From assembly GCF_003018255.1 (NCBI RefSeq), contig NZ_CP027440.1: a stretch of 64,000 nt of DNA. One strand, 5' to 3'. The position numbers and the translations under genes are program-made. Below the pieces are notes generated by a model. That model saw only the letters and a list, made by a program, of their open reading frames with translations. It ran no database searches and had not been told where the DNA came from. This DNA is from Escherichia coli. GTDB lineage: Bacteria > Pseudomonadota > Gammaproteobacteria > Enterobacterales > Enterobacteriaceae. The stretch's first letter is position 1, and the number at the start of each line of letters is the position of its first letter. Of the stretch, positions 8,848 to 41,895 are shown in pieces.

Positions 8848-8928
8848 AAAAAAGCCCCCTCGGAGAGAGGGGGGAATGCAGACACCTTAATATTTTTATT
8901 ATTAGCCACTTGCTCGTCTTGCTTGTTA

Positions 8929-25516: not shown

Positions 25517-25870
25517 ATGATCGTGCAAAAAGAGCTGGTTGCTATTTACGATTATGAGGTCCCTGTACCTGAAGATCCGTTTTCCTTCAGACTTGAGATC
25601 CATAAATGCTCTGAATTATTTACAGGTTCCGTCTATCGACTGGAGCGATTCCGGCTACGTCCAACATTTCATCAACGTGATCGAGAAGATGCTGACCCGC
25701 TAATAAATGATGCGTTGATTTATATAAGAGATGAGTGTATTGATGAGCGGAAATTACGAGGTGAATCACCTGAAACTGTAATAGCAATTTTTAATCGTAA
25801 ACTACAGAATATATTCAACCAACTAATAGAATATTACTTTATTAAAGGGGGAAGCGGTTTTCCCCCTTAG
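25517..25870 (+). CDS. yehK: Small uncharacterised protein
   Basis: 117-aa ORF on the track; true start uncertain (I recall the K-12 product as shorter); stop codon lies inside the hairpin that begins the first zor repeat. Confidence 0.5.
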   Translation: MIVQKELVAIYDYEVPVPEDPFSFRLEIHKCSELFTGSVYRLERFRLRPTFHQRDREDADPLINDALIYIRDECIDERKLRGESPETVIAIFNRKLQNIFNQLIEYYFIKGGSGFPP

Positions 25871-25889
25871 TTGCGTTTCAATTTGCCCA

Positions 25890-25979
25890 TTACTTCAACA
25901 AATCAATCAACCGTAACAGAGCCACTAATAGCTCCAGTACAGCAATGAGCACGGTTAACTTTTGTGTCAGCGTGTCCAT
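25890..25979 (-). CDS. zorO: Type I toxin small hydrophobic peptide, 29 aa (ZorO-like)
   Basis: Minus-strand ATG..TAA encodes MDTLTQKLTVLIAVLELLVALLRLIDLLK; AAGGAG SD 5 nt upstream; long 5' UTR; flanking hairpin terminator; too short for the ORF track. Confidence 0.7.
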   Translation of the reverse strand: MDTLTQKLTVLIAVLELLVALLRLIDLLK

Positions 25980-26217
25980 CCGCTCTCCTTATTAAGGAGC
26001 GCAACACCAGCACCTTACCCTTACACTGCCTGTCGACACTGGTTTACGTTTGTTGAGTCGCCATGTTGCACTCCGGATCAGAGCACTACCTGCGGCACCA
26101 CCCGTCCGGTAGCCAGGACTTGAAATGGGTTCGATCCGGCGCAACTTCCCAACAGTCAGGATTATAAATCTCATTATCTTAATTGCAACACGGTCCAGCG
26201 GTGGTTATAATTCGTTC

Positions 26218-26300
26218 GTTGAGATGCCATGTTGCACTATCAGTAACTTAACATCAAAGTAGTAAATAAAAGAACCTGCCTCACCAGCAGGTTCTTTTAT
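26218..26300 (+). ncRNA. orzO: Divergent antitoxin sRNA (OrzO-like), about 80 nt
   Basis: Consensus-like promoter TTGCAA-17-TATAAT (26183..26211), then a transcript ending at hairpin gaacctgc-ctcaccagc-gcaggttc plus T-run; 5' end gttgagatgccatgttgcact is complementary to the toxin 5' UTR (26053..26073). Confidence 0.6.
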
Positions 26301-26497
26301 TTTCTGCGATCTACTTTCCAGATATTTTTCGCCAATAGCCCACCATAAATATTCACATCCCGGCCAAATAGTACGTTGATTATAAAATCGATGAATTTAT
26401 AAATAAAAATGAGTTATATGATGAATTAATAAAAACAGTAATCATTTTATTAAAGGGGGAAACGGTATTCCCCCTTAGATGCGTTTCAATTTGCCCG

Positions 26498-26587
26498 TTA
26501 CTTCAACAAATCAATCAACCGTAACAGAGCCACTAATAGCTCCAGTACAGCAATGAGCACGGTTAACTTTTGTGTCAGCGTGTCCAT
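26498..26587 (-). CDS. zorP: Type I toxin small hydrophobic peptide, 29 aa, second copy (ZorP-like)
   Basis: Coding sequence identical to copy 1 (same 29-aa peptide), same SD and terminator hairpin. Confidence 0.7.
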   Translation of the reverse strand: MDTLTQKLTVLIAVLELLVALLRLIDLLK

Positions 26588-26825
26588 CCGCTCTCCTTAT
26601 TAAGGAGCGCAACACCAGCACCTTACCCTTACACTGCCTGTCGATACTGGTTTACGTATGTTGGTACGAAACGTTGCTCTCCGGATCAGGGCACCGCCTG
26701 CGGCACCACCCGTCCAGCAGCCAGGACTTAAAATTGGTCCGATCCGGCACAACCTCCCAACGGGCAGGATTATAAATCTCATTCACTGAATTGCAATGGA
26801 GTGTGGATATGGTTATAATTTATTC

Positions 26826-26908
26826 GTTGGTACGAAATGTTGCACAATCAGCAAGTTAGCGTCATTGTAGTAAATAAAAGAACCTGCCTCACCAGCAGGT
26901 TTTTTTAT
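26826..26908 (+). ncRNA. orzP: Divergent antitoxin sRNA, second copy (OrzP-like)
   Basis: Promoter TTGCAA-17-TATAAT (26791..26819); 5' segment gttggtacgaaatgttgcaca is complementary to the copy-2 toxin UTR (26661..26681); same terminator hairpin. Confidence 0.6.
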
Positions 26909-27017
26909 TTACTGTGATCTGCTTTCCAGATATTTTTCGCTCAAACAACTAATGCGGCAAACATTTATTGCGCGTAAAATATCGTTTATTTCATTAATAC
27001 ATTTCAGGGATGAATAT

Positions 27018-28106
27018 ATGTCACCGCAGAATAATCATCTGCAGCGTCCGCCTGCCGCTGTGTTATACGCCGATGAACTGGCAAAATTAAAACAAAATGA
27101 TCACGCACCTTGCCCGCCCGGTTGGCAGTTAAGTTTGCCTGCGGCCCGCGCTTTTATCCTTGGCGATAGCGCGCAAAATATTAGCCGTAAAGTCGTGATC
27201 AGTCCCTCCGCTGTCGAACGCATGTTAGTCACTCTCGCTACCGGGCGCGGTTTGATGTTGGTGGGGGAACCTGGCACCGCAAAATCGCTCCTGTCTGAAT
27301 TACTGGCAACCGCTATTAGCGGCGATGCCGGGTTAACCATCCAGGGCGGCGCATCTACCACCGAAGATCAAATCAAGTACGGCTGGAACTACGCCCTGCT
27401 TATCAACCATGGTCCGTCAACGGAAGCGCTGGTCCCTGCCCCGCTTTACCAGGGAATGCGCGACGGCAAAATTGTCCGTTTTGAAGAGATAACGCGTACA
27501 CCGCTGGAAGTACAAGACTGTCTGTTAGGTATGCTTTCTGACAGGGTAATGACGGTGCCGGAACTCACCGGTGAAGCCAGTCAGCTCTATGCGCGAGAAG
27601 GCTTTAATATTATTGCCACTGCCAATACCCGCGATCGCGGCGTCAATGAGATGAGTGCCGCGCTAAAGCGTCGCTTCGATTTTGAAACCGTCTTTCCGAT
27701 TATGGATTTCGCCCAGGAGCTGGAACTGGTCGCCAGTGCTTCGGCGCGTTTGCTGGCCCATAGCGGTATTCCGCATAAAGTGCCTGACGCGGTACTGGAG
27801 TTACTGGTCCGCACCTTCCGCGATCTGCGTGCCAACGGCGAAAAGAAAACGTCAATGGATACCCTGACGGCAATTATGTCCACCGCTGAAGCCGTGAACG
27901 TGGCCCACGCAGTGGGCGTCCGCGCCTGGTTTTTAGCGAATCGCGCAGGTGAGCCAGCCGATCTGGTGGACTGTATTGCCGGAACCATCGTCAAAGATAA
28001 CGAAGAAGATCGCGCTCGTCTGCGCCGTTACTTCGAACAGCGAGTCGCCACACATAAAGAAGCTCACTGGCAGGCTTATTATCAAGCTCGCCACCGCCTG
28101 CCGTGA
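27018..28106 (+). CDS. yehL: MoxR-family AAA+ ATPase (YehL subfamily)
   Basis: Start set at the internal Met (MSPQNNHLQRP; GGGA RBS) within ORF 26952..28106, giving 362 aa; Walker A GEPGTAKS. Confidence 0.85.
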   Translation: MSPQNNHLQRPPAAVLYADELAKLKQNDHAPCPPGWQLSLPAARAFILGDSAQNISRKVVISPSAVERMLVTLATGRGLMLVGEPGTAKSLLSELLATAISGDAGLTIQGGASTTEDQIKYGWNYALLINHGPSTEALVPAPLYQGMRDGKIVRFEEITRTPLEVQDCLLGMLSDRVMTVPELTGEASQLYAREGFNIIATANTRDRGVNEMSAALKRRFDFETVFPIMDFAQELELVASASARLLAHSGIPHKVPDAVLELLVRTFRDLRANGEKKTSMDTLTAIMSTAEAVNVAHAVGVRAWFLANRAGEPADLVDCIAGTIVKDNEEDRARLRRYFEQRVATHKEAHWQAYYQARHRLP

Positions 28107-28116
28107 GGAAAGATGC

Positions 28117-30396
28117 ATGAGCGAGCCGTTAATTGTCGGCATCCGGCATCATAGTCCGGCCTGCGCCCGGCTGGTGAAATCGTTAATCGAAAGCCAGCGG
28201 CCACGATACGTGTTGATTGAAGGCCCGGCTGATTTTAATGACCGGGTAGACGAACTGTTTTTAGCCCACCAGCTTCCGGTAGCTATTTACAGTTATTGCC
28301 AGTATCAGGACGGTGCAGCCCCCGGGCGTGGTGCCTGGACGCCATATGCTGAATTTTCGCCGGAGTGGCAGGCGCTACAAGCCGCTCGTCGTATTCAGGC
28401 ACAAACTTACTTCATCGATTTGCCTTGCTGGGCGCAGAGTGAAGAAGAGGACGATTCGCCTGATACGCAAGAGGAAAGCCAGACCTTGCTGCTGCGTGCC
28501 ACCCGCATGGATAACAGCGACACCCTGTGGGATCACTTGTTCGAAGATGAAAGCCAGCAAACTGCATTACCCTCTGCACTGGCGCACTATTTTGCACAAC
28601 TGCGGGGCGATTCCCCCGGAGATGCTCTCAATCGTCAGCGCGAAGACTTTATGGCCCGCTGGATTGGTTGGGCGATGCAGCAAAACAATGGCGACGTGTT
28701 AGTCGTCTGCGGTGGCTGGCACGCTTCTGCACTGGCAAAAATGTGGCGCGAATGCCCGCAGGAAATTAACACGCCGGAATTGCCCTCGCTGGCAGATGCC
28801 GTTACAGGTTGTTATCTCACCCCCTACAGTGAAAAGCGCCTTGATGTGCTGGCAGGATACCTTTCCGGTATGCCTGCCCCGGTCTGGCAAAACTGGTGCT
28901 GGCGGTGGGGCTTGCAGCAGGCAGGTGAACAACTGCTGAAAACGGTTCTTACCCGTTTGCGCCAGCACCACTTGCCTGCTTCAACAGCGGATATGGCTGC
29001 CGCTCATCTGCATGCGATGGCACTGGCACAGTTGCGTGGTCATACACTACCGTTACGCACTGACTGGCTGGATGCCATAGCAGGCTCGCTGATTAAAGAA
29101 GCCCTGAATGCGCCGTTGCCGTGGAGCTATCGCGGCGTTATTCATCCCGATACCGATCCGATTCTGCTAACGTTGATAGACACATTAGCGGGTGACGGAT
29201 TCGGTAAACTTGCCCCCTCTACGCCACAGCCGCCTCTGCCAAAAGATGTCACCTGCGAACTGGAACGTACAGGAATCTCTTTTCCGGCGGAGCTTACTTT
29301 AAATCGCTTTACCCCCGATGGACTGGCGCAAAGTCAGGTGTTACATCGGCTGGTAATACTGGAGATCCCAGGGGTTGTGCGCCAGCAGGGAAGTACACTG
29401 ACACTTGCAGGCAACGGTGAAGAACGCTGGAAATTAACCCGCCCGCTTAGCCAACATGCGGCATTAATTGAGGCCGCCTGCTTTGGTGCCACACTCCAGG
29501 AAGCCGCACGCAATAAATTAGAAGCCGATATGCTGGACGCGGGTGGAATCGGCAGTATCACCACATGTCTTAGCCAGGCGGCGTTAGCGGGTCTGGCGTC
29601 CTTCAATCAACAATTACTGGAGCAACTCACATTATTAATCGCCCAGGAAAATCAGTTTGCCGAAATGGGCCAGGCGCTGGAAGTGCTATATGCCTTATGG
29701 CGGCTGGATGAAATTAGCGGTATGCAGGGCGCGCAGATATTACAAACGACATTATGCGCGGCCATCGATCGCACGCTGTGGCTATGTGAATCCAACGGCA
29801 GACCGGATGAAAAGGAGTTTCACGCTCACCTGCATAGCTGGCAAGCGCTTTGCCATATCCTGCGCGATCTACATAGCGGCGTTAATTTACCCGGCGTTTC
29901 TCTTTCTGCGGCGGTAGCCTTACTGGAGCGACGCAGTCAGGCGATTCATGCCCCGGCGCTGGATCGCGGCGCGGCACTTGGCGCACTGATGCGTCTGGAA
30001 CATCCCAACGCCAGTGCCGAAGCGGCGCTGACAATGCTGGTGCAATTATCCCCGACACAATCCGGCGAGGCGCTGCACGGTTTGCTGGCATTAGCCCGTC
30101 ATCAACTGGCCTGTCAGCCGGTATTTATCGCCGGTTTCAGCAGTCATTTAAATCAACTGAGTGATGCCGATTTTATCAATGCCCTGCCCGATTTACGCGC
30201 GGCGATGGCCTGGCTACCACCACGAGAACGCGGGACGCTGGCGCATCAGGTGCTTGAGCATTATCAACTGGTGCAACTTCCCGTTTCGGCACTGCAAATG
30301 CCGTTGCATTGTCCACCACAAGACATTGCACATCATCAACAACTCGAACAGCAGGCACTGGCATCGCTGCAACACTGGGGAGTTTTCCATGTCTGA
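28117..30396 (+). CDS. yehM: Large uncharacterised protein encoded between MoxR ATPase and VWA genes
   Basis: Start set at the internal Met (MSEPLIVGIRHHSPACARLV; GAGGAA RBS) for 759 aa; begins 10 nt after the yehL stop. Confidence 0.8.
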   Translation: MSEPLIVGIRHHSPACARLVKSLIESQRPRYVLIEGPADFNDRVDELFLAHQLPVAIYSYCQYQDGAAPGRGAWTPYAEFSPEWQALQAARRIQAQTYFIDLPCWAQSEEEDDSPDTQEESQTLLLRATRMDNSDTLWDHLFEDESQQTALPSALAHYFAQLRGDSPGDALNRQREDFMARWIGWAMQQNNGDVLVVCGGWHASALAKMWRECPQEINTPELPSLADAVTGCYLTPYSEKRLDVLAGYLSGMPAPVWQNWCWRWGLQQAGEQLLKTVLTRLRQHHLPASTADMAAAHLHAMALAQLRGHTLPLRTDWLDAIAGSLIKEALNAPLPWSYRGVIHPDTDPILLTLIDTLAGDGFGKLAPSTPQPPLPKDVTCELERTGISFPAELTLNRFTPDGLAQSQVLHRLVILEIPGVVRQQGSTLTLAGNGEERWKLTRPLSQHAALIEAACFGATLQEAARNKLEADMLDAGGIGSITTCLSQAALAGLASFNQQLLEQLTLLIAQENQFAEMGQALEVLYALWRLDEISGMQGAQILQTTLCAAIDRTLWLCESNGRPDEKEFHAHLHSWQALCHILRDLHSGVNLPGVSLSAAVALLERRSQAIHAPALDRGAALGALMRLEHPNASAEAALTMLVQLSPTQSGEALHGLLALARHQLACQPVFIAGFSSHLNQLSDADFINALPDLRAAMAWLPPRERGTLAHQVLEHYQLVQLPVSALQMPLHCPPQDIAHHQQLEQQALASLQHWGVFHV

Positions 30397-31525
30397 ACTG
30401 AACGATCTTCTGACCACCCGTGAGCTACAACGCTGGCGATTAATTCTTGGCGAAGCGGCAGAAACGACGCTTTGTGGGCTGGATGACAACGCCCGGCAGA
30501 TAGACCACGCGATGGAGTGGCTGTATGGGCACGATCCTGAACGGTTCCAGCGTGGTGAACGCTCCGGTGGATTAGGTTGCTCAAATCTCACCCCCCCTGA
30601 GTGGATCAACAGTATTCACACGCTGTTTCCGCAACAGGTGATTGAACGGCTGGAAAGCGATGCCGTACTGCGCTACGGCATTGAAGATGTGGTGACGAAT
30701 CTCGACGTGCTGGAACGTATGCAACCGTCTGAAAGCCTGCTACGCGCCGTTTTGCACACCAAACATCTGATGAATCCCGAAGTACTGGCTGCCGCCCGCC
30801 GGATAGTACGCCAGGTTGTTGAAGAAATTATGGCTCGACTGGCAAAGGAAGTTCGTCAGGCTTTTTCTGGTGTCCGCGATCGCCGCCGTCGCTCATTTAT
30901 TCCACTGGCGCGTAATTTCGATTTCAAAAGTACGCTGCGTGCCAACCTGCAACACTGGCATCCGCAACACGGCAAGTTGTATATCGAATCCCCCCGCTTT
31001 AACAGCCGCATTAAGCGCCATAGCGATCAATGGCAACTGGTCTTACTGGTTGATCAAAGCGGATCGATGGTTGACTCGGTGATCCACTCAGCGGTGATGG
31101 CGGCCTGTTTATGGCAGTTACCCGGCATTCGTACCCATCTGGTGGCGTTTGACACCAGCGTGGTTGATCTCACGGCAGACGTTGCCGATCCGGTAGAGTT
31201 ATTAATGAAAGTACAACTGGGCGGCGGGACCAATATCGCCAGTGCCGTGGAGTATGGTCGGCAACTTATTGAACAACCTGCAAAAAGTGTCATTATCCTC
31301 GTGAGCGATTTCTATGAAGGTGGTTCATCATCATTGCTGACGCATCAGGTGAAAAAGTGTGTCCAGAGCGGCATCAAAGTGCTGGGACTGGCGGCGCTCG
31401 ATAGCACCGCAACACCTTGCTATGACCGCGATATGGCCCAGGCACTGGTTAATGTCGGTGCACAAATAGCCGCCATGACGCCGGGCGAACTGGCGACCTG
31501 GCTTGCGGAGAATCTTCAGTCATGA
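30389..31525 (+). CDS. yehP: von Willebrand factor A (VWA) domain protein
   Basis: Start set at the internal Met (MSELNDLLTT) for 378 aa; MIDAS-like motif LLVDQSGSM; overlaps the yehM stop by 8 nt. Confidence 0.8.
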   Translation: MSELNDLLTTRELQRWRLILGEAAETTLCGLDDNARQIDHAMEWLYGHDPERFQRGERSGGLGCSNLTPPEWINSIHTLFPQQVIERLESDAVLRYGIEDVVTNLDVLERMQPSESLLRAVLHTKHLMNPEVLAAARRIVRQVVEEIMARLAKEVRQAFSGVRDRRRRSFIPLARNFDFKSTLRANLQHWHPQHGKLYIESPRFNSRIKRHSDQWQLVLLVDQSGSMVDSVIHSAVMAACLWQLPGIRTHLVAFDTSVVDLTADVADPVELLMKVQLGGGTNIASAVEYGRQLIEQPAKSVIILVSDFYEGGSSSLLTHQVKKCVQSGIKVLGLAALDSTATPCYDRDMAQALVNVGAQIAAMTPGELATWLAENLQS

Positions 31526-33512
31526 ATTCACTACGTCCGGAATTATTAGAACTGACACCACAGGCACTGACGGCGTTAAGCAATGCCGGTTTTGTTAAGC
31601 GCAGCCTTAAAGAACTGGAAAATGGCAACGTCCCGGAAATCAGTCATGAGAACGGCGCTTTAATCGCCACCTTCAGTGACGGTGTCCGCACCCAGCTGGC
31701 GAACGGCCAGGCACTGAAAGAGGCTCAGTGCAGCTGCGGGGCCAGCGGCATGTGCCGCCATCGCGTGATGCTGGTTTTAAGTTATCAGCGACTTTGCGCC
31801 ACCACCCAGCCTACGGAAAAAGAAGAAGAGTGGGATCCGGCAATCTGGCTGGAAGAACTGGCTACCCTGCCCGATGCCACCCGCAAACGCGCACAGGCGC
31901 TGGTCGCTAAAGGCATCACCATTGAGTTGTTCTGTACGCCGGGCGAAATTCCCTCTGCCCGCTTACCGATGAGCGATGTACGTTTTTATTCCCGCAGCAG
32001 CATTCGTTTCGCTCGCTGTGATTGTATTGACGGCACACTTTGCGAACATGTCGTACTGGCTGTGCAGGCCTTCGTCGAGGCCAAAACTCAGCAAGCGGAA
32101 TTTACTCATTTAATCTGGCAGATGCGCAGCGAACACGTCACATCATCTGACGATCCGTTTGCCAGCGAAGAGGGCAACGCGTGTCGTCAATATGTTCAGC
32201 AATTAAGTCAGGCATTATGGCTGGGCGGCATCAGCCAGCCGCCAATCCATTACGAGGCCGCTTTCAGCCGCGCACAGCAGGCGGCGGAACGCTGCAACTG
32301 GCGATGGGTGAGTGAATCGCTACGGCAACTGCGCGCCAGCGTTGATGCCTTCCACGCCCGCGCCAGCCACTATCATGCCGGAAAATGCTTGTGCCAGCTT
32401 GCGGCGTTAACCAGTCGCTTGAACAGTGCACAAGAGATAGCGCGACGTGACAGTGTCGGTGAAGTACCGCCCATGCCGTGGCGCACGGTCGTTGGCTCTG
32501 GCATTGCCGGAGAAGCAAAGCTTGATCATCTGCGGCTGGTGTCTTTAGGTATGCGTTGCTGGCAGGATATTGAGCATTATGGTTTACCGATCCCGACACC
32601 GGCAGTATTTTGCATCTTTCGCGTAGTTGGCCGAGAAGCGAACAGGAAAACTCACCGGCAGCGACGCGTCGGCTGTTTAGTTTTCAGGCTGGCGCACTGG
32701 CGGGCGGGCAAATTGTTTCACAAGCAGCAAAACGCAGTGCCGATGGCGAGCTGCTGTTAGCTACCCGCAACCGCTTAAGCAGCGTTGTGCCGCTGTCGCC
32801 TGATGCCTGGCAAATGTTGAGCGCGCCGTTACGCCAGCCGGGCATTGTGGCTTTGCGGGAATATTTACGCCAGCGTCCCCCCGCCTGCATACGGCCTCTT
32901 AATCAGGTCGATAACTTATTTATTCTGCCGGTCGCTGAGTGTATTTCGCTCGGTTGGGATAGCAGCCGCCAGACGCTGGATGCGCAGGTAATCAGCGGCG
33001 AAGGTGAAGATAATCTGCTGACGTTATCACTGCCAGCCTCAGCCAGCGCGCCTTATGCCGTTGAACGCATGGCGGCGCTTTTGCAACAAACAGACGACCC
33101 CGTGTGTCTGGTTTCTGGCTTTGTCAGCTTTGTAGAGGGGCAATTGACACTGGAACCACAGGTAATGATGACAAAGACTCGTGCCTGGGCGCTGGACGCA
33201 GAAACTGCGCCTGTGGTGGCATCACTACCTTCTGCCAGCGTTCTGCCTGTGCCGTCTACTGCTCATCAGTTGCTGATGCGCTGCCAGGCGTTACTTATTC
33301 AACTGCTCCATAACGGCTGGCGCTATCAGGAACATAGTGCTATTGGTCAGGCAGAGTTGCTGGCGAATGACCTCACCGCGGTGGGTTTTTATCGGCTGGC
33401 ACATGTGTTGGGACAATTTCGTAATACAGAAAGCGAGGCACGGGTAGAAGCAATGAATAACGGTGTTTTGCTGTGCGAACAATTATTCCCCATGCTTCAG
33501 CAACAAGGATGA
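31522..33512 (+). pseudogene. yehQ: SWIM zinc-finger protein gene split by a frameshift
   Basis: ATG at 31522 overlaps the yehP stop (ATGA); two CxC...CxH SWIM-like motifs (QCSCGASGMCRH, RCDCIDGTLCEH); the reading frame 31522..32760 switches to the frame 32610..33512 within about 32575..32650. Confidence 0.6.
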
Positions 33513-38894: not shown

Positions 38895-39821
38895 TTACGC
38901 CTCCTCCAGCAGATCCTGAAAATGCAGCGTGCCGCAAGGCTCGCCCTGCGTGTTCACCACCGGCAGCACCTCGCATCCCCGCGCGACAAACAGAGAAAGC
39001 GCATCGCGTAGCGTCATCTCTTCTGCCAGCGCCTCACCTTCTGCCCGTTCTTCGCGACGCACGTAATCCGCCACGCTACGTAACGAAAGCAGGCGGACAC
39101 CCAGTTCACTATGCCCAAAAAACTGGCGGACAAAATCATTCGTCGGACGAGTCAGCATCGTCAGCGGATTGCCCTGCTGCACCACTTCACCGTGATCCAT
39201 CAACACCAGATGTTCTGCCAGTCGTAGCGCCTCATCAATATCATGAGTGACCAGCACAATGGTACGCCCCAGCAAACGGTGTATGCGCGTCATCTCTTGT
39301 TGCAACGCGCCGCGCGTTACCGGGTCCAGCGCGCCAAAAGGTTCATCCATCAGTAAGACTTGCGGATCGGCAGCCAGCGCGCGGGCCACTCCCACACGTT
39401 GCTGCTGACCACCGGAAAGCTGATGCGGATAACGCTCACGCAAATTTGGCTCCAGCCCCAGTAGCGCCATTAATTCGTCGATACGATCGTCGATCCGCGC
39501 CCGTGACCATTTTTGTAATTGCGGCACGGTGGCAATATTTTGCGCCACGCTCCAGTGGGGAAACAGGCCAATAGATTGAATGGCATAGCCCATCCGGCGG
39601 CGCAACTCCAGCACTGGCAGCGAGCGAATTTCTTCTCCGGCAAAGCGGATCACGCCACTGTCATGCTCCACCAGGCGGTTAATCATTTTCAGAGTGGTGG
39701 ATTTACCGGAACCCGACGTGCCAATCAGTACCGAAAAACTCCCTTCCTGAAAATTGAGATTGAGATCGTTAACGGCTTTTTGTGCGCCGAACAGTTTGCT
39801 GACATGGCTAAATTCAATCAT
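38895..39821 (-). CDS. yehX: Osmoprotectant ABC transporter ATP-binding protein
   Basis: 308 aa; Walker [13 protein letters not shown] signature LSGGQQQRV, Walker B VLLMDEP. Confidence 0.9.
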
Positions 39822-40971
39822 TACGTTTCACCTTCAGCAGTGCGATAAGCAAATCGAACAGCGCGTCGGTAAGCACCGCCAGAACAATTACCGGGATCAC
39901 CCCCAGCAACACTAAATCAATGGCACTGCTTAGCAGCCCCTGGAAAACCAGCGCACCAAAACCGCCTGCGCCGATTAACGCCGCAATCACCGCCATGCCA
40001 ACGGTTTGTACCATCACCACCCGCAGGCTGCGCAGAAATACCGGTAACGCCAGCGGTAACTGAACATGCAGGAAACGCTGCACCCCGCTCATCCCCATCG
40101 CTCTGGCGCTCTCCAGCACATCGCGCGGGATCTGGTTCAAGCCGACTACTACGCCGCGCACCAGCGGCAGCAAGGCATAGAGCACCAGCGCAATCAGTGC
40201 GGGTGTCATTCCGGTTCCTGCTATGCCGAGCGTTCCCAGCCACGGAAAGGCCGTAACCAGCGCGGCAAGCGGCGCAATCAGCAGGCCAAAGAGCGCTACC
40301 GAAGGCACGGTCTGAATGACATTCAGCAGAGAAAAAATCGCCCCCTGCCGCGCGGTGGAAAAGTAGCACCAGATGCCCAACGGCACACCAATCACTAACG
40401 CAGGCAGCACCGCACCAAACAGCAACGTCAGATGTTGTGCCAGCGCGTCGTCAAACACATCCTGACGGTTGGCGTATTCTTTCATTAACGAGAGATCGTT
40501 AAGCGTGCCGGAGTACAGCAACCACAGCGGAACAATGGCAATCTGCATATGCAACAACCAGCGCCACAGCGGATGCGTGGAGATTCGGCGGATGGCATCG
40601 CTACAGGCCAGCAGTGCCAGCGCCGCAGCCAGCCAGAAACCACTTCCGAGGCTGGTACGCGCCAGCGCACTGCCATTTTGCGCCAGTTGTGTCGCCGCCT
40701 TTCCAGCTCCCCACACCAGCAATACGAAGACGAATTGCGCCAGAATGAGTGCAAAAATGCTGCCTTTTTTAGCGGGAATAAAACAGGCTGTCAGCCAGGC
40801 GCAACCAACGCCCACCAGCATCCAGAGAGTTTGCGGCCACAGCTGCCAGAGATGACGCCCCTCACCCGAAACTAAACGATTAGGTGCGTAACTGATAAAC
40901 GGCAGCGCCGCTGCGATTGCCGTCAGCAACAGCAGCAGCGCCAGAACAGGATTAATACGGAAATAAGTCAC
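39814..40971 (-). CDS. yehY: Osmoprotectant ABC transporter permease
   Basis: 385-aa membrane ORF; apparent GTG start as given by the track; overlaps yehX by 8 nt. Confidence 0.8.
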
Positions 40972-40977
40972 GGGAAA

Positions 40978-41895
40978 TTACTTCGTCCACCCTTTTTGTT
41001 TCAGGTAGTCGGCTGCCACTTTTTTGGCATCCAGTCCTTCCACTGCAATGCTGGCATTCAGCTGCTGCAATGTTTTTTCATCGAGGCTGGCGAAGACTGG
41101 CTGTAGCCACTGTGCTATTTGCGGATACTCTTTCAGCACCGACTCACGCACCACTGGCGCAGGCGCGTAGATAGGTTGCACGCCTTGCGGATCGCTTAAA
41201 GTTTGCAGCCCCAGCGCCGCGACCGGGCCGTCAGTGCCGTAAGCCATCGCCGCATTAACGCCAGAGGTTTGCTGGGCAGCGGCTTTGATCGTCACCGCCG
41301 TGTCACCACCGGCCAGTGACAGCAACTGATCCTGACTGAGCTTAAAGCCATAGGCTTTTTCAAACGCGGGTAAGGCATCGGCGCGTTCGATAAACTCTGC
41401 CGAGGCTGCCAGTTTAAAGGTGCCGCCCTCTTTCAGATAACGACTCAGGTCGGCAAGCGAAGTGAGTTTGTTTTTCTCTGCCACATCCTGACGCACGGCG
41501 ATGGTCCAGGTGTTATTTGCAGGCGCGGGCGTCAGCCAGATTAACTTGTTTTGCTCTGCATCGAGTTTTTTGACTTTCTCATAGCCTTGCTGCGCGTTTT
41601 TCCATGCCGTATCGTTTTCATCTTTAAAGAAAAACGCGCCATTGCCAGTATATTCCGGATAGATATCCAGCTCGCCAGAAGTGATCGCCCCGCGCACTAC
41701 GGGAGTCGTTCCCAGCTGCACTTTATTTACCGTAGGAACGCCGTGACTTTCCAGCACCTGCAAAATGATATTGCCGAGCAGCGCGCCTTCCGTATCGATT
41801 TTTGAACCAACCTTAACGGGGGAAGCCGCCTGTAGCGGCAGGCTCACGGCTGCCAACAAAACCAGTGAACCTGCCCAGACCTTTGAGAGTGGCAT
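40978..41895 (-). CDS. osmF: Periplasmic glycine betaine/osmoprotectant-binding protein
   Basis: 305-aa ORF with signal peptide; first gene of the operon. Confidence 0.85.
   Translation of the reverse strand: MPLSKVWAGSLVLLAAVSLPLQAASPVKVGSKIDTEGALLGNIILQVLESHGVPTVNKVQLGTTPVVRGAITSGELDIYPEYTGNGAFFFKDENDTAWKNAQQGYEKVKKLDAEQNKLIWLTPAPANNTWTIAVRQDVAEKNKLTSLADLSRYLKEGGTFKLAASAEFIERADALPAFEKAYGFKLSQDQLLSLAGGDTAVTIKAAAQQTSGVNAAMAYGTDGPVAALGLQTLSDPQGVQPIYAPAPVVRESVLKEYPQIAQWLQPVFASLDEKTLQQLNASIAVEGLDAKKVAADYLKQKGWTK

Follow-up and report, generated by a model that had tools for sequence, protein, structure and literature searches.

A frameshifted yehQ allele in one Escherichia coli genome, very probably the product of a recent direct-repeat deletion

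INTRODUCTION

Deletions between direct repeats, arising by strand slippage or through microhomology, are a textbook class of mutation that makes frameshift pseudogenes in enterobacteria. The yehQ allele described here resembles that class in having lost a repeat copy with its spacer while retaining one copy at the junction, in a deletion length that is not a multiple of three, and in a premature stop codon with the remainder of the gene undamaged. Compared with the textbook cases it would be mechanistically the same; this 13-bp allele was found in no other genome searched.

Overlapping reading frames related by −1 also occur in genes that use programmed frameshifting, such as dnaX and the transposases of the IS3 family (e.g. 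that of IS1203), and the two yehQ frames share this layout. Unlike in those genes, the two-frame arrangement of yehQ is not conserved and comes without a slippery heptamer, and the single frame is ancestral. Within E. coli the closest comparisons are other lesions of yehQ itself. Like the allele described here, those of K-12 and of strains JNE23-011, 9662, A65EC and NJS001 have been inactivated independently, but their lesions differ from ours in position and type, and none has its junction.

We analysed a 64,000-nt stretch of contig NZ_CP027440.1 (RefSeq assembly GCF_003018255.1), here called the window, for which an original prediction made from the sequence alone had reported a reading-frame break within yehQ. 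We find that the break is very probably a real, recent and strain-private loss-of-function mutation of yehQ by direct-repeat deletion.

READING FRAMES OF THE yehQ LOCUS

The window carries rcnA, yehABCD, metG, two DUF4132 genes, yehL-yehM-yehP-yehQ, yehR, btsSR and onward, as on the E. coli chromosome. The nearest complete genome is that of E. coli JNE112863 (NZ_AP045072.1), whose intact yehQ is 2004 nt long and encodes 667 aa. The original prediction had named the gene as the SWIM zinc-finger gene yehQ, and this is borne out by synteny, by annotation (the MG1655 protein is described as ‘SWIM zinc finger domains-containing’) and by a Pfam match to the SWIM zinc finger PF04434 at aa 56-88 of YehQ (34.7 bits against a cut-off of 19.6). 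The features of the locus are as follows, with the basis of each in brackets.

31522..33512, + strand: predicted yehQ pseudogene, whole; 1991 nt, the intact gene having 2004 nt (synteny and JNE112863 annotation)
31522..32586, + strand: yehQ in its native frame, codons 1-355 (BLASTP identity to intact YehQ)
32580..32587, + strand: deletion junction, the single kept copy of the 8-bp direct repeat TGGTTTAC (three-way alignment and pattern search)
32587..32760, + strand: out-of-frame tail, 57 aberrant codons (PIPTPAVFC...ASCC) and stop codon TAG at 32758-32760 (translation)
32580..33512, + strand: stranded C-terminal remnant in the −1 frame, equal to W358-G667 and the native stop (translation; nucleotides as in the intact allele)

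The list of open reading frames gives two ORFs in different frames over this gene: 31522..32760 (+, 412 aa, starting with ATG) and 32610..33512 (+, 300 aa, starting with TTG). Residues 1-355 of the 412-aa ORF are 100% identical to JNE112863 YehQ (667 aa) by BLASTP, and the match is then lost. The out-of-frame tail of 57 residues, PIPTPAVFCIFRVVGREANRKTHRQRRVGC...ASCC*, is rich in Arg and had no significant BLASTP match to intact YehQ. The second frame opens at 32574, behind a TGA at 32571-32573, and its translation, ALWFTDPDTGSILHLSRSWPRSEQ..., corresponds to YehQ starting at W358. Between 32574 and 32760 both frames are open, and rejoining them needs a −1 change.

The two frame pieces line up in order along a single intact orthologous ORF, and window yehQ equals JNE112863 yehQ at all 1991 remaining positions, with zero nucleotide mismatches. 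A chance pair of ORFs was rejected, since the two halves match a single orthologous gene without mismatch. The frame break reported by the original prediction stands on the same match, and the Arg-rich stretch that it had noted running to the stop at 32760 was confirmed by translation as the 57 aberrant codons. To judge from the sequence, the locus is a frameshifted yehQ pseudogene and not an intact member of the SWIM family.

THE DELETION AND ITS PROBABLE MECHANISM

Alignment to intact yehQ orthologues located the indel. When the window, JNE112863 and HB101 are aligned together, the window shows one 13-column gap, at gene nt 1059-1071, immediately after window position 32579. The first of the options raised by the original prediction, a true pseudogenising indel, is what this comparison with JNE112863 returns: a deletion of 13 bp, a length that is not a multiple of 3. 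The lost segment is TGGTTTACGCATC.

Intact alleles carry the octamer TGGTTTAC twice, 13 nt apart, in the arrangement TGGTTTAC-GCATC-TGGTTTAC, which encodes codons 353-360 (YGLRIWFT). The intact context reads ...GAGCATTA TGGTTTAC GCATC TGGTTTAC CGATCC... and that of the window ...GAGCATTA TGGTTTAC CGATCC..., and what is missing from the window is one copy of the 8-bp repeat together with the 5-nt spacer. The breakpoint can be placed at any point inside the 8-mer at 32580-32587. This lies within the interval of about 32575..32650 to which the original prediction had confined the switch. Its suggestion that the lesion sits near a T-run (gcagtattttgcatctttc) did not survive: the T-run at 32607-32611 matches that of intact alleles, and we rejected it as the lesion site because the alignments place the sole gap ~20 nt upstream. 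Both repeat copies are kept in all other fetched E. coli alleles except one (L018), which has a variant spelling.

The repeat structure points to a slipped-strand or microhomology-mediated deletion. Slipped-strand mispairing during replication, or another deletion process mediated by microhomology, would have removed one repeat unit and the spacer. The two copies are read in different codon phases (TAT GGT TTA C in one, ATC TGG TTT ACC in the other), and therefore losing one 13-nt period shifts the frame. Thirteen nucleotides do not make whole codons, so translation from the ATG at 31522 exits the native frame after Leu355. Ribosomes starting there would read 57 unrelated codons past Leu355 and stop at 32758-32760.

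OCCURRENCE OF THE ALLELE

The deletion junction was sought among complete E. coli genomes, GTDB species representatives and metagenome contigs. A 78-nt junction query matched 5,335 of the 5,426 complete E. coli genomes, with top matches that were all in two pieces spanning 91 nt; no perfect single-piece match ranked above the two-piece ones in this set of 5,426. Exact-pattern scans for the junction found none among the GTDB species representatives and none among JGI metagenome contigs. With the orthologues in one frame and 5,426 complete genomes without the junction, single-frame yehQ is the ancestral and majority state.

The exact 412-aa product occurs on two contigs only, an NCBI contig of 4,892,666 bp (presumably that of the source genome) and a 15-kb Logan contig from SRR8931299. 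Across 7,239 nt, junction included, the Logan contig and the window are 100% identical; if SRR8931299 holds the reads behind the NCBI assembly, this match excludes assembler artefacts and does not amount to a second, independent sample of the strain. Against JNE112863 the window shows 262 substitutions and 6 indels in 49.8 kb (99.4% identity). The five indels other than the yehQ deletion, four of 1 nt in the rcnB-yehA intergenic region and one in osmF, break no gene of the window. The mutation may date from the sequenced culture or be an older one of the natural isolate.

ALTERNATIVE EXPLANATIONS

If the genome truly had an intact 2004-nt yehQ, the 13-nt gap would have been made by base-calling, polishing or assembly; a sequencing error in a homopolymer was among the options of the original prediction. 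The deletion allele is known from one isolate only, and assemblers can occasionally collapse short tandem-like repeats, both of which are in keeping with an artefact. Against it, the indel is 13 nt long and lies outside any homopolymer, and the 21-nt repeat structure is far below the read length and below a typical assembly k-mer. The separate Logan assembly of SRR8931299 agrees with the window at every position of 7.2 kb, and the absence of a second frame-breaking indel from the 49.8 kb compared with a 99.4%-identical relative indicates a clean assembly. The signature of homopolymer error, indels of 1-2 nt in mononucleotide runs with similar errors elsewhere, was not seen over the 49.8 kb compared. 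An origin of the deletion in assembly or in a homopolymer is unlikely, and an intact gene hidden behind any such artefact is very improbable. A programmed frameshift, which the original prediction already thought less likely than the other options, would have ribosomes slip by −1 at or near 32580-32587 (T GGT TTA) and yield a near-full-length YehQ minus four or five residues. It would account for the −1 relation of the frames, their overlap over 32574-32760, and the U-rich heptamer TGGTTTA lying exactly at the junction. This heptamer, however, is a mere remainder of one repeat copy after the deletion, and a search of 32560-32760 for a canonical slippery heptamer X XXY YYZ found none, TGGTTTA being the only relaxed match; R356 and I357, which hardly vary among homologues, would be missing from the product of slippage as well. 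The two-frame arrangement is moreover private to this genome, while its nearest relatives and all distant orthologues have a single frame. Every opened complete-genome locus with a PGAP annotation of intact yehQ holds a single ORF of 666-667 aa, and single-frame orthologues of 664-676 aa, with 98-100% coverage, were found in E. fergusonii, E. albertii, E. marmotae, E. ruysiae, Klebsiella, Erwinia and Pseudomonas graminis. Alignment of orthologues gave no shared two-frame arrangement, which argues against programmed frameshifting, and with single-frame orthologues and no slippery heptamer we rejected it; its probability is close to nil.

A functional split gene would leave the 412-aa SWIM N-fragment active, either alone or with a C-fragment started separately at TTG 32610 or ATG 32814. 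The C-terminal coding sequence is undamaged, as such a gene would have it, and a very recent deletion explains this equally well. A gene caller did call a 232-aa ORF from window position 32814, but Shine-Dalgarno pairing at the candidate internal starts is weak: for those in frame at 32610, 32787, 32814 and elsewhere the anti-Shine-Dalgarno energies are −1.5 to −3.8 kcal/mol, against −4.9 to −7.9 kcal/mol for four reference start positions tested in the same locus. Independent translation of the C-terminal remnant was rejected on this weak pairing and for want of a credible start of its own. The AlphaFold model places a low-confidence linker (residues 316-331) between the N- and C-terminal regions, as might suit a split; the break falls ~25-40 residues past this linker, in a conserved beta-meander, and neither fragment would contain a complete domain. 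The split was seen in no other genome searched. We regard continued activity of the fragments as highly improbable.

The yehQ lesion, very probably a direct-repeat deletion, adds a new allele to a well-known class and would be an ordinary, recent loss of function.

CONSEQUENCE FOR THE PROTEIN AND THE OPERON

The truncated product of 412 aa keeps the N-terminal SWIM-finger region and is without the 312 C-terminal residues, which make up 47% of the protein. A second CxC...CxH motif at ~aa 166-176 is also kept, as is the SWIM finger. Few blocks of YehQ are as well conserved as the one around the break: in an alignment of 22 homologues at 54-90% identity, W347, Q348, Y353, W358 and D361-G365 do not vary and R356 and I357 hardly do. 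Pairwise Nei-Gojobori comparison of six intact E. coli alleles gave dN/dS values of 0.08-0.15 for codons 1-355 and 0.06-0.18 for codons 361 to the end. An AlphaFold2 model of intact YehQ puts the break within the beta-meander, whose strands are 340-348, 352-360 and 367-375; the model is of moderate confidence (mean pLDDT 73.6, pTM 0.37) and its domain packing is unreliable. Conservation of the lost part suggests that YehQ function has been lost in this strain.

Synteny is yehL-yehM-yehP-yehQ-yehR, with yehQ directly downstream of yehP as the last gene of the operon. The three genes upstream have intact reading frames in the ORF list, with coordinates carried over from JNE112863.

27018-28106, + strand: yehL, MoxR-type AAA+ ATPase (ORF list and JNE112863 annotation)
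28117-30396, + strand: yehM, DUF5682 (Pfam DUF5682 on the gene call of the Logan contig)
30389-31525, + strand: yehP, vWA (Pfam VWA_CoxE on the gene call of the Logan contig)

Because yehQ ends the operon, little polar effect would be expected from its truncation. The appropriate annotation of the locus is a frameshifted yehQ pseudogene, neither two genes nor a recoding site, and the finding has little import beyond annotation. The strain would be a natural C-terminal truncation mutant of YehQ in which the yehLMPQ operon is otherwise intact, and a possible control strain if a function is ever assigned to the MoxR-ATPase / vWA / SWIM module.

Searches for such a function gave little. YehL, YehM, YehP, YehQ and the two DUF4132 proteins had no PADLOC matches, the NCBIfam search and a sequence-profile search of the PDB returned no matches, and Pfam found the SWIM domain alone in YehQ. 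Literature searches on yehQ, yehLMPQ and DUF4132/MoxR/vWA/SWIM returned almost only noise (author initials, peptide fragments) and no documented function of YehQ. Foldseek comparison of the YehQ AlphaFold model with the PDB gave no match at E ≤ 0.001. The weaker matches (best E 8.8e-3) were to ssDNA-binding proteins with tandem OB folds, namely Teb1 AB, RPA70 DBD-A/B and Stn1-Ten1. This resemblance is sub-threshold, its aligned part is unspecified and the model has the pTM of 0.37 given above, and we offer the possible OB-fold likeness as a lead only.

OTHER LESIONS AND DIVERSITY OF yehQ

The yehQ of K-12 (MG1655 and HB101) has an internal stop at codon 615; the annotated CDS of MG1655 is 614 aa, and PGAP labels the HB101 gene ‘internal stop’. 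The allele of JNE23-011 has an 8-bp deletion at nt 358-365 and is otherwise identical to the window allele. There is a frameshift near nt 1711 in O111:H8 strain 9662, a stop at codon 488 in A65EC and an IS1203 insertion in NJS001. Two database proteins, P0002 and P0144, end at the out-of-frame stop of the window; to judge from their sequences they are probably products of 1-bp deletion alleles.

Among the genomes opened regardless of their yehQ state, 15 of 16 had the gene intact. Because lesions are sporadic and independent, despite purifying selection in intact alleles, yehQ may be conditionally dispensable, and the pattern suggests sporadic decay of a mostly maintained gene. It is unlikely that yehQ, perhaps with all of yehLMPQ, is under recurrent selection for inactivation in E. 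coli/Shigella, or that the 355-residue SWIM fragment is regulatory. Under such selection for inactivation, the window deletion would be one adaptive event and not neutral decay.

In strain SC516 (L019), yehP is flagged as a pseudogene (internal stop) beside an intact yehQ, and sporadic inactivation thus extends to other genes of the operon. In NJS001, the interrupted yehQ lies with yehP and yehR, normally chromosomal, on a record annotated as the 438-kb plasmid pNJS001-2, perhaps a megaplasmid of chromosomal origin, perhaps a mis-assigned replicon.

Alleles of yehQ are unusually divergent within the species. That of the window is ~94% identical to those of most E. coli genomes, with a dS of ~0.2 in its N-terminal half; the flanking 24 kb is mostly at 95-99%. 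Against the alleles of BS-04 and PNUSAE145743, dS is ~0.20 in the N-terminal half and 0.045 in the C-terminal half. These values suggest that yehQ is a mosaic, recombinant gene.

OTHER OBSERVATIONS IN THE WINDOW

Two direct repeats of ~500 bp and ~89% identity, at 25838-26335 and 26446-26944, lie between a yehK-like ORF (25517..25870) and yehL. Rfam finds an OrzO-P antitoxin sRNA in each, at 26225-26298 and 26833-26906 on the + strand (90 and 89 bits, gathering threshold 60). We take the repeats to be tandem zorO-orzO / zorP-orzP type I toxin-antitoxin loci. The K-12 gap at this position is much shorter.

The yehY of JNE112863 is interrupted by an internal stop and its osmF by a frameshift (L003 32728-34808). 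The window has a long ORF at each of the two places, 39814..40971 (yehY) and 40978..41895 (osmF), and the osmF difference is a single T at 41565.

The four 1-nt intergenic indels relative to JNE112863 fall within 40 nt of each other, at window positions 8852-8892 between rcnB and yehA. They surround an inverted repeat rich in G and C, AAGCCCCCTCGGAGA/GAGGGGGG, with A and T runs on its flanks, and from its sequence the element resembles a strain-variable terminator hairpin.
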